From a virus (taxonomy: Monodnaviria; Loebvirae; Hofneiviricota; Faserviricetes; Tubulavirales): a DNA stretch of 4,344 nucleotides. The notes below the pieces were generated by a model. That model had not been told where the DNA came from, did no database searches, and saw nothing but the letters and a program-made list of their open reading frames with translations. The stretch's first letter is position 1; every line of letters starts with the position of its first letter. The position numbers and the translations under genes were made by a program. The stretch lies in the IMG/VR virus record IMGVR_UViG_2667527898_000017; one strand, 5' to 3'. This document shows positions 209-2,209 of this stretch, piece by piece.

Positions 209-2209
209 ATGACCGAATCAGCCATCCTTACAGCGTATAACGCCATCGACGCGGCATCCGTTGCCCTTGGTCGTCCCTGCCTGACGCTGCCCGAACGCGA
301 GCATTTTCGGACTGAGCGCGATGTTGCCACCCGCAACCTTTCCACGCTTTCCCGCCAGTATCGTGATGAGGTCGGGACCTTATCTTCACAGCTCGCATTG
401 CCGCGTAACACGCAGGTTGACCGTGTGATTTACGGAATTAACTGCACGGATTTATCTCTCGCTGACATGGGCAGGGCTGCCGGACTGGTATCACAGTTTG
501 GCTCGTTTTCGTTCACCGTAGCGCATGCGTTCTGCCGTCTGGTTTACCAGCTTGGTGTGAAAAATGCGCTGATGGCCCTTGAGTCCGCTCACCGTTTTGC
601 TTTCTTCAATCAGGACGGAGACCCTTATGAATTCTCGCTTTTCTGCACTGATGAGCAGATTGCTGAGGTGGCTGATTCGGTTGTTCGTGACTGCCTTGTT
701 TCTCGGGCCATTTATAGTGATGTACCAGAGCATCACCTTCTCAATGTGATGGCCTATTTTCAGGCCATCTCCGGCTTTGATTTCGCCCCCGTTTATGCCA
801 CTTATCATGATCGTTACGGCGATGAGGGATTGCTTAAGCGTCTGACTGATTTGGCTTTTGTCACCCGTTTCCTGCGGGTTTTCCGTGACCAGCGGGTCAA
901 TGAGGTCTGTCGCATGCTCGGCATACTGAACCGCAACGCGCCTTATATTTCTGACTGGCATCGTGACCTGTTTGCTGTCCGCAGTAAACGCGTGAAAAAG
1001 TATCTCCGGTCCTCCGGTGTCTTTGATGCGTTTAATGAGCTGATCTGTACGCTGGAAGATGCGCATAACGCCTCTGTTTCGAATCCGAAAAACCGGATTG
1101 CTGAACTCTGCGTTCGTGGAAAGGCCGTCTGTGAACTGTCCGAAGATATGGGGCTGTCCGGTTACTTCATCGTGCTCACCACGCCGTCACGTTTTCACCC
1201 GACGACCAGTTTTAATGTTGCCGGAAAATGGCATTCTCGTCCGAATAAAAAATGGTGGGAAGCAGGTTGCCCGACCGTTAAGGATTCGCACGCCTGGCTG
1301 AATACCGTCTGGCGTCGGGTCTGCCGCAGACTGGATAAAGCCGGTATTCAGATACCCGGCCTGCGTACGGTCGAGCCTCATGCTGACGGTACAACGCACT
1401 GGAATTTCCTGATTTACTGCAATCCCCATGAGAGCGCAACGGTGCTGGCCATTTTCCGTGAAGAGGCCATGCGCGATGAGCCGGATGAAAAGGGGGCGAA
1501 AGAGCACCGTATTTGTATTGAGGCTATTGACCCTGAAAAGGGTGATGGTTTCCGTTACATCGTGAAGTACATCACCAAAATGGCGGGTGATGTTAGTGCG
1601 GATGGTATTACCGCCCTGAATGACCGTTATTCTGCCCGTTCATTCTGTGATGCCGTCAGCCGTGCCGCCTGCTGGCAGAAAGCAACGCGCCTTCGCCTGT
1701 TCCAGTTCTTTGGCGTTCCGTCCGTCACGGCTTACCGCCAGATGCGTACTTTTCGTTCACCGCTTGAAGCACATCATATCAATATGCAGCAGTTCACGCC
1801 GCAGCAGGTCGCCGAACTGGAGGCCATCCGCATGGCCTGTGATGCAGGCGATTTCCGGACCTATATCCTGCTGAACGGCGGTTTCTTCTGTTCTGAACGT
1901 CTGCTTCGTCCTTTTTACGTTCAGCCGCAGGAAGGTGGTAAACCCCGTTTTAACCGTTACGGTGAACCCTGCGCACCGGTGATTTCCGGTTTCATGTTTG
2001 GCCCTGTTCCGGTCATAACCCGTTTTATGGGCTGTGTTGTCCGCCGTATGACCCCCGCAGAAAAAATCCGCGCAGAGGAAGTCAGAAGCGGCAGCAGCTA
2101 TGAATCTGTGTTTATTTCGTCGGCTTCACGACACCGCACGACGCGCTCCCGCGCGGCGGGTGGGGGCGGCGAAGCCGACCCTTGGACTTGTGACAATAAC
2201 TGTCCCTGA
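209..2209 (+). CDS. Rolling-circle replication initiation protein (Rep), phiX174 gpA / P2 gpA-like superfamily; functional equivalent of inovirus gene II
   Basis: 666-aa ORF in the track. The first in-frame ATG is at 209 and the frame opens after a TGA at 191..193. A weak SD-like GAGAG lies at 192..196. Three motifs in canonical order: FIVLTTP (1166..1186), an HUH-like [10 protein letters not shown] (1388..1417, with N in place of the second His), and the paired-tyrosine motif [10 protein letters not shown] (1550..1579, Y-x3-Y). First gene of a gene-order-conserved inovirus module. Confidence 0.8.

Follow-up and report, generated by a model that had tools for sequence, protein, structure and literature searches.

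We analyzed a 4,344-nucleotide (nt) stretch of filamentous phage DNA (IMG/VR record IMGVR_UViG_2667527898_000017; hereafter the window, meaning the whole stretch), in which an open reading frame (ORF) of 666 amino acids (aa), rep, occupies positions 209-2209. Sequence comparisons lead us to conclude, with high confidence, that this ORF encodes the replication initiator of an integrative filamentous phage of E. coli and relatives, a two-tyrosine HUH nuclease of the P2 A/phiX174 A family whose origin would lie at the 3' end of its own gene. Rep differs from P2 A at its predicted metal site, where a clade-wide asparagine replaces the second histidine of the H-U-H motif.

Pfam places Rep in Phage_GPA (PF05840; 164.5 bits against a cut-off of 31.4, E 4.2e-48, aa 207-457), and PHROG 91, "nicking at origin of replication," covers aa 124-666 (E 1.7e-127). 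Three positive controls also match this Pfam model, namely P2 A (415 bits), phiX174 A (210 bits), and orf698 of the filamentous Vibrio phage VFJ (364 bits), so that "phiX174/P2 gpA-type" designates one curated family with Rep inside it. BLASTP aligns Rep to P2 A with 28% identity over 416 aa (E 2e-36), and RefSeq labels a 99%-identical E. coli copy "replication endonuclease" (WP_032269437.1). A preliminary description of this DNA had proposed a gpA-type initiator rather than one of the Ff gene II type, and both halves of that proposal hold: the Ff gene II families (PF05144 Phage_CRI and PF05155 Phage_X) gave no Pfam match to Rep at E ≤ 1. The same search returned no Rep_trans match (PF02486), and the translation lacks a single-tyrosine module of the SIYNK type. 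PF23343 REP_ORF2-G2P, a distantly related model also matched by P2 A, phiX174 A, and VFJ orf698, gave a sub-threshold score (15.8 bits, cut-off 27.8), and NCBIfam profiles matched neither Rep nor the neighboring proteins. When the family alignment was compared with the phiX174 A sequence by hhalign, the motif III segment alone was recovered, at a probability of 1%; the link between Rep and phiX174 A therefore rests on the shared Pfam model and not on direct alignment. The ~320 aa upstream of motif I had also been described as an unusual N-terminal extension, which has to be withdrawn. Motif I sits at aa ~322 in P2 A and at aa 320 in Rep, and homology to P2 A and PHROG 91 begins at aa ~124-153, so that this region is standard for the family.

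The residues expected of such a nuclease are present in the translation, where FIVLTTP, HWN, and paired tyrosines followed by a lysine (Y450, Y454, and K457) had been pointed out from the letters alone; the phiX174 motif quoted alongside them is also correct, the phiX174 A translation reading FYVAKYVNKK. Motif I pairs with FITLTAPSKYH of P2 in the BLASTP alignment. Across an alignment of 45 family members, T324, P326, S327, and H330 are invariant, as are Y450, Y454, and K457, while E389, P390, H391, D393, and H397 are invariant family-wide. The YxxxY pair lies inside motif III and falls on Y450/Y454 of P2 A, the active-site tyrosines of P2.

Motif II is where Rep departs from P2 A, whose VEPHHDGTPHWHMMLFCNP it pairs with in BLASTP. 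The replacement of histidine by asparagine that the preliminary description called unusual is real, HWN falling on HWH of P2; it is clade-wide and recurs in ~6% of family representatives. Among 98 homologues, EPHxDGxxHWN is found in all 38 with E < 1e-124, which span 41-99% identity and represent E. coli, Salmonella, Morganella, Providencia, and Xenorhabdus, and HWH in all 60 more distant ones. A clade alignment of 25 sequences, reaching down to 33% identity, keeps N399, E389, P390, H391, D393, H397, W398, Y450, K453, Y454, and K457 invariant throughout. We then searched the family exhaustively among 1.84 billion representatives, obtained 1,895 matches, and typed the best 150 of them at motif II: at least 132 carry H-U-H and 9 (~6%) carry H-U-N. 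Five of these nine belong to the Rep clade and four lie elsewhere (P0129, P0190, P0215, and P0221), so the substitution is recurrent rather than unique. The histidine following EPH is lost too, replaced by Ala in Rep and by K, R, V, T, or N in its relatives; at least one of positions 391/392 is always His across 234 family members.

The H-W-N clade reaches beyond Enterobacterales into a marine Psychromonadaceae genome (L140/L141, P0102), with 35-37% identity and the motif EPHADGCEHWN. A scan of genome contigs for the clade returned Salmonella, Xenorhabdus, Psychromonadaceae, Alteromonas, and Halomonadaceae, the last two at 27-31% identity, with no E. coli or Yersinia representatives among the returns. 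The range of the clade is Enterobacterales plus a few marine gammaproteobacteria, and we suspect that gene II of YpfPhi/CUS-1/UPPhi falls outside it.

Do H-U-N and EPH-A mark a crippled or repurposed Rep, such as a DNA-binding regulator or a protein dependent on a helper nuclease, in prophages that are replication-defective remnants? Such decay could be read from the loss of two of the four histidines of P2 EPHHDGTPHWH, from the 132 of the best 150 family representatives that kept H-U-H, and from the many copies known solely as chromosomal prophages. We nevertheless find it very unlikely. N399 is invariant and not drifting in the clade alignment, alongside the tyrosines, K457, H391, H397, E389, and D393, and rep has a ratio of nonsynonymous to synonymous substitution rates (dN/dS) of 0.16 when compared with an E. 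coli allele of 98% identity and of 0.18 with one of 58% identity. Each clade member retains the adjoining cognate nick element and the hairpin, both described below, the prophages occur in tandem arrays with up to 17 matching places per genome, and H-U-N arose again in the four other branches. Finally, H-U-Q is an accepted variant of the HUH motif found in active nucleases (PMC10833120), which gives a carboxamide at the second H-U-H position a precedent. We conclude that Rep is, as far as its conservation can tell, a functional enzyme with a variant metal site and not the product of a decaying gene.

The fold predicted for Rep agrees with this assignment. An AlphaFold2 (AF2) model built with 45 homologues is confident (predicted local distance difference test [pLDDT] 89.6, predicted template modeling score 0.87), with disorder confined to aa 630-654, where pLDDT is below 50, and aa 661-666. 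It places motif I on strand 317-323, EPH391 and H397-W-N399 on a β-hairpin (384-390/396-404), and Y450/Y454 on helix 448-459, which adjoins the β-hairpin bearing H391, H397, and N399, in what is predicted to be an HUH-nuclease fold. The best BFVD match of the model is a replication protein of a Vibrio cholerae filamentous phage (E 8.5e-20), and weaker named matches include microvirus initiators (E ~2e-3).

The candidate origin lies at the end of rep, where CCTTGGACTTGTGACAATAACTGT is identical at 19 of 24 positions to CCTCGGAGTCCTGTCAATAACTGT of P2 (L002 2889-2912). The P2 stretch holds the "nick site at ori" annotated in GenBank (P2 nt 29892 = L002 2893), and by alignment with P2 the nick in the window is predicted next to G2184. 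The element is single in the window, where none is expected by chance, and 12 of 13 loci have exactly one element per phage copy, in each case on the strand of rep. Its invariant positions read CCT.GGA.T..TG.CA.TAACT. Its DNA is constant while its coding status varies among phages: it forms the last codons of rep in the window phage and in locus L007, spans the rep stop codon in Salmonella (TGA of GTGACA) and VFJ (TAA), and is intergenic in Providencia and Xenorhabdus, ~190 nt downstream of the rep stop. Two of its three frames contain a stop (TGA in GTGACA and TAA in CAATAAC), and hence the element can be read through solely in the N-N-C frame, as it is in P2, the window phage, and L007. The rep genes of Salmonella clade members and of VFJ-type phages terminate on the stops of the element itself.

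Scanning IMG/VR with a degenerate form of the element retrieved at least 120 contigs with one element each, and together with the previously collected loci we analyzed 134 occurrences, 129 of which have a same-strand gpA-type ORF that overlaps the element or lies shortly upstream. In the P2-like class (n = 93), the element lies at least 100 nt inside gene A, and folding upstream of it is weak (mean z −2.0). In the inovirus class (n = 19), it lies −36 to +195 nt from the stop codon, and a 23-31-bp hairpin ends 0-1 nt before it (mean z −5.4, individual values −3.8 to −8.8; Mann-Whitney p = 4e-8 for folding between the two classes). Initiators of the inovirus class include H-W-N, H-H-H, and H-N-H types. 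The hairpin of the window (2119-2179) folds as DNA at −29.2 kcal/mol, with a z of −4.7 and 0 of 200 shuffles as good. Hairpins of unrelated sequence stand at the equivalent place in L007, L009, L011, L012, VFJ, and other inovirus-size contigs, which in sequence terms is covariation of a whole stem. We regard the hairpin and the nick element at 2180-2203, in the last ~90 nt of rep, as the probable origin. Rfam models found nothing in the window.

The hairpin also encodes Rep aa 637-657, and hairpin and element together encode aa 637-665, mostly the tail that AF2 predicts to be disordered. No substitutions separate the window from the E. coli E100341 allele over aa 637-665, a stretch too short for significance. 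We considered the Rep tail as a functional peptide and set this aside, because the tail is predicted to lack order and, in Providencia and Xenorhabdus, Rep terminates ~190 nt ahead of the element.

Alternatively, the hairpin may not belong to the plus-strand origin and may serve as packaging signal or minus-strand origin, adjoining the nick site by position only. In Ff phages, long plus-strand hairpins act as packaging signal and minus origin, clustered in the intergenic region, and P2-like phages, which do not package single-stranded DNA (ssDNA), have a 5-bp stem at this place and the weaker folding given above. We hold a separate role to be unlikely. In all inovirus-class loci examined, a gap of 0-1 nt separates the nick element from the 3' end of the hairpin, although the hairpin sequences are unrelated and the coding contexts differ, and P2-like elements too have a short stem at the same offset (gap of 1 nt); this constant spacing, together with the short stem of P2-like phages, points to a single functional unit. 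Relaxase oriT sites, too, usually carry an inverted repeat 5' of the nick.

Besides a separate hairpin, other points weigh against our interpretation of Rep and its origin. The second histidine of H-U-H is Asn and the one after EPH is Ala, and metal binding by N399 is assumed from chemistry and the H-U-Q precedent. The nick next to G2184 is transferred from the P2 GenBank annotation and is uncertain by ±1 nt owing to the annotation convention. In the Protein Data Bank (PDB), Foldseek returned nothing significant for the model (best E 0.097) and a sequence search returned nothing at E ≤ 10; no solved structure of the gpA family was found there.

The analysis directly supports the family assignment, the alignment of the motifs, the class of fold, the setting in a phage genome, purifying selection, and the DNA-level conservation and linkage of nick element and hairpin; on these we build the following scheme. 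Rep would bind the double-stranded replicative form at the origin in the last ~90 nt of its own gene and would hold a divalent metal by H397 and N399 plus a third ligand, probably H391. Either Y450 or Y454 would cut the plus strand next to G2184 and become covalently joined to the 5' phosphate, leaving a free 3'-OH that could prime host polymerase III, with unwinding by a host superfamily 1 helicase, probably the host's own Rep, as in P2 and phiX174 and as predicted from PMC4863604. After one round, the second tyrosine would cut the regenerated site and the first phosphotyrosine would be resolved, releasing a circular plus strand that may be coated by the protein in the gene V position and exported via Zot and the secretin, or turned back into duplex DNA. 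Alternation of two tyrosines holds for P2 A. It is also given as established for phiX174 A (van Mansfeld et al. 1986, as cited in PMC5714925). In this scheme, where exactly the nick falls, which residues ligate the metal, which helicase takes part, and what the hairpin does are inferred.

Features of the window, with their positions, strand, and basis
Feature	Position	Strand	Basis
rep, 666-aa gpA-type (HUH-Y2) rolling-circle initiator	209-2209	+	ORF with ATG start; Pfam, PHROG, BLASTP
Motif I, FIVLTTP (aa 320-326), then invariant PSRFH (H330)	1166-1186	+	Family alignment; predicted β-strand
Motif II, H-U-N for H-U-H (aa 389-399; H397-W398-N399)	1373-1405	+	Falls on P2 EPHHDGTPHWH (BLASTP); predicted β-hairpin
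Motif III (aa 448-457), paired catalytic tyrosines Y450 and Y454, plus K457	1550-1579	+	Family alignment; P2 A alignment; predicted helix
Long imperfect hairpin, outer arms GTCGGCTTC / GAAGCCGAC	2119-2179	+	Repeat search and DNA fold; abuts nick element
Candidate (+)-strand origin nick element CCTTGGACTTGTGACAATAACTGT	2180-2203	+	19/24 identity to P2 ori region; last codons of rep
Sigma-70-like promoter candidate for rep, TTGACG-17-TAGCAT	110-138	+	Consensus scan; such sites no commoner in the window than in shuffles
7-bp perfect inverted repeat CTGATAC-cgtcaa-GTATCAG, candidate operator just downstream of the −10 box	141-160		Read from the sequence; putative function
141-aa protein in the gene V (ssDNA-binding) position	2240-2665	+	Place after rep, as VFJ orf104
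Two small overlapping ORFs, 46 aa (2670-2810) and 56 aa (2803-2973), in the gVII/gIX position	2670-2973	+	Coding sequences in E. coli copy; putative role from position
80-aa candidate major coat protein, N-terminal signal-like segment, C-terminal hydrophobic/basic tail	2998-3240	+	Translation and position
gIII-like adsorption protein, runs off the window	3301-4344	+	PF05357 Phage_Coat_A, E 4.6e-9; PHROG 4150/8482

Judged from its sequence and that of its relatives, the window is the left part of an inovirus genome, integrative and with a unit of ~8.7 kb. Downstream of rep, the 141-aa protein matches PF17426 Putative_G5P weakly and below the cut-off (E 0.034) and belongs to phrog_30648, which has no assigned function; the 46-aa and 56-aa ORFs matched no family in Pfam or PHROGs. 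A Providencia prophage protein at the position of the 80-aa candidate coat protein matches PF19199 Phage_coatGP8. Right after this coat-like gene stands a strong intrinsic terminator (3256-3281; stem 3256-3273 of 7 bp with 6 G-C pairs, then T6); a terminator after the coat gene is the usual inovirus layout and raises coat-gene over gIII expression. Within the gIII-like gene, a 78-nt tandem repeat coding for Gly and Ser is present in 3.4 copies with 95% matches (3968-4235; Tandem Repeats Finder), and variation in the length of this stretch probably accounts for the fragmented BLAST matches and the reduced coverage seen in E. coli copies.

By megablast, the window region is present in 43 of 5,426 complete E. 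coli genomes, always in the chromosome. No match was found among 50,697 phage records, so this phage is not among the deposited phage genomes. In E. coli strain 100416 (99% identical), the prophage runs on with Zot and a secretin and forms a tandem repeat adjoining hipBA, bounded by a hybrid dif-like site; dif of E. coli lies by hipA. The metagenome contig L005, identical at 207 of 208 positions over window 1-208, also continues with Zot and a secretin. Its divergent 153-aa HTH_3 repressor gene lies on the minus strand with a start codon complementary to window 4-6, and the promoter candidate for rep falls in the divergent region between the two genes. L005 begins and ends with an identical 11-nt XerC-arm-like sequence, giving a unit of ~8,720 bp.

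The canonical 28-nt E. coli dif and the XerD arm are absent from L001, which contains hybrid dif-like sites only. The attachment region (L001 7321-7420 and 16062-16160; L005 1-94 and 8721-8731) has two inverted dif-like sites around a terminator-like hairpin. These sites read AGTGCGCATAATGTGACA(C/T)GCGTTATGTTGAAA and, on the other strand, AGTGCGCACAATG(A/G)CGTTATGTATA. The module of rep and structural genes is found with two upstream modules. One consists of the HTH_3 repressor and a dif-like attP, as in the window, L005, and E. coli 100416; the other has an IS110-family transposase gene ending 2 nt before rep and occupies non-dif chromosomal sites (E. coli E100341, L007-L009; L156 527-1495). 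Owing to these two alternatives, the E. coli matches listed (15 of 43) begin near window ~205-215. In some genomes, 13-17 separate places match the window (E. coli NZ_AP043614.1, strain AST205, and NZ_CP035860.1), which points to long tandem arrays or to several insertions of prophages of this family.

This context bears on whether rep is an inovirus gene at all, or the remnant of a P2-like tailed prophage or of an HUH-Y2 transposase of the IS91/Helitron kind. Its ~28% identity to P2-like gpA proteins, a Helitron transposase as best solved structural match, and the IS110-family transposase that some E. coli copies have 2 nt ahead of rep would all fit such a remnant. Against them, every clade member examined has rep at the head of a full set of inovirus genes (coat, gIII-like, Zot, and secretin), including those of Salmonella, Providencia, and Xenorhabdus; the ~8.7-kb unit has no helicase domain and no P2 structural genes; and the nearest phage relative is VFJ, itself filamentous. 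We set such a remnant aside as extremely improbable and retain rep as an inovirus gene.

Altogether, rep is an uncharacterized and largely ordinary member of a known family; its active-site variant is of mild interest, and its candidate origin is well defined. Within limited access to the literature, we did not find descriptions of the clade-wide H-W-N, of the P2-type nick element in inoviruses, or of a long hairpin fixed at the 3' end of rep. The analysis assigns a replication mechanism and a concrete candidate origin to an uncharacterized family of filamentous prophages found in Salmonella, Providencia, Xenorhabdus, and E. coli isolates from humans, diarrheal and other. The ~24-nt nick signature, common to P2-like tailed phages and an inovirus lineage, offers a simple DNA marker for gpA-type origins and makes a clear case for exchange of replication modules across unrelated virion types. 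Conserved H-U-N is also a natural experiment on the ligands needed by the HUH-Y2 active site, and the variant could serve HUH-tag engineering, but as a finding it is incremental and not surprising.

A broader interpretation, which we put forward as speculative, takes the H-W-N/EPH-x clade and its hairpin and P2-type nick origin as a gpA sub-type adapted to inoviruses. The altered metal site might change metal preference or damp nicking, to suit chronic non-lytic replication from tandem prophages; an origin placed on the disordered tail might keep Rep cis-acting, as reported for P2 A; and the cassette might have been exchanged with P2-like phages. If this is true, tailed P2-like phages and one filamentous lineage exchanged a complete initiator-plus-origin cassette. 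Exchange of replication modules between unrelated virion types fits the polyphyletic modules of inoviruses (PMC13595969).

Among known initiators, P2 A (761 aa, PF05840) is one of the closest parallels. Motif I, EPHxDG..HW, and YI.KYI.K are collinear in the two proteins, with the tyrosines at the same residue numbers, and the nick element of P2 likewise lies in the initiator's own gene, on the same strand and in the same N-N-C frame. P2 A has H-W-H and EPH-H where Rep has H-W-N and EPH-A, and Rep is ~95 aa shorter at its C terminus. The P2 origin lies ~430 nt before the stop of gene A and is preceded by a 5-bp stem, whereas the Rep phage has its candidate origin within the final 30 nt of rep, behind a hairpin of ~60 nt; P2 is a 33-kb tailed phage and the carrier of Rep an ssDNA inovirus.

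phiX174 A aligns its YVAKYVNK tyrosines to the same profile positions as Rep but has H-F-H, and its origin lies inside gene A as the candidate origin of the Rep phage lies inside rep. The phiX174 origin, CAACTTG/ATATTAATAACAC (L003 4295-4320), has only CTTG and AATAAC in common with window 2181-2200, and the spacing from CTTG, immediately 5' of the nick, to AATAAC is 5 nt in phiX174 and 10 nt in the window. This likeness may be a remnant of a common origin or chance. Helraiser, a Helitron whose HUH-Y2 nuclease domain has been solved (PDB 7lcc), is alike at the level of fold only, with 10% identity to Rep, and is a eukaryotic transposase fused to a helicase.

Gene II of Ff phages (M13/f1/fd) and Rep_trans of CTXphi and Pf play the same role as Rep, that of a phage nickase starting rolling-circle synthesis of the plus strand. 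The gene II protein of Ff has ~410 aa, and the Ff origin lies in the intergenic region. The Ff, CTXphi, and Pf initiators have one catalytic tyrosine module, LVAYlKH or SIYNK, and the features of Rep_trans (PF02486), with CTXphi RstA, VGJphi, and Pf PA0727, are given in the same source (PMC4863604); its fold is unrelated and TBP-like (PMC13595969). In Vibrio phage pre-CTX (KP972569.1, 1543-2895), a protein labeled "RstA-like" matches Rep at E 1e-49. CTXphi RstA is reported as Rep_trans (PMC4863604), and KP972569.1 either carries an fs2-type rep or has a misleading "RstA-like" label. The inverted dif-like sites and hairpin of the window phage family resemble the folded ssDNA attP of CTXphi.

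The closest characterized phage relatives of Rep are VFJ (orf698) and fs2 (orf716), filamentous Vibrio phages of the genus Saetivirus, with 29.5% identity to VFJ across 85% of Rep. For a filamentous phage, a gpA-type initiator has precedents: a 2016 paper (PMC4863604, Table 2) lists fs2, VFJ, phiLf, and Cf1c as a "third group" whose initiators are Pfam05840/phiX174-like and carry the module VGYVAKY; HUH initiators are found in a minority of filamentous phages and are polyphyletic (PMC13595969, a 2026 taxonomy paper). VFJ has the gene order of the Rep phage (rep, gV, small ORFs, coat, gIII, gVI, gI, and gIV) and the same nick element, which spans its rep stop and is abutted by a 27-bp hairpin. 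VFJ keeps H-N-H and EPHH and has a Vibrio host, whereas the Rep clade has an invariant H-W-N.

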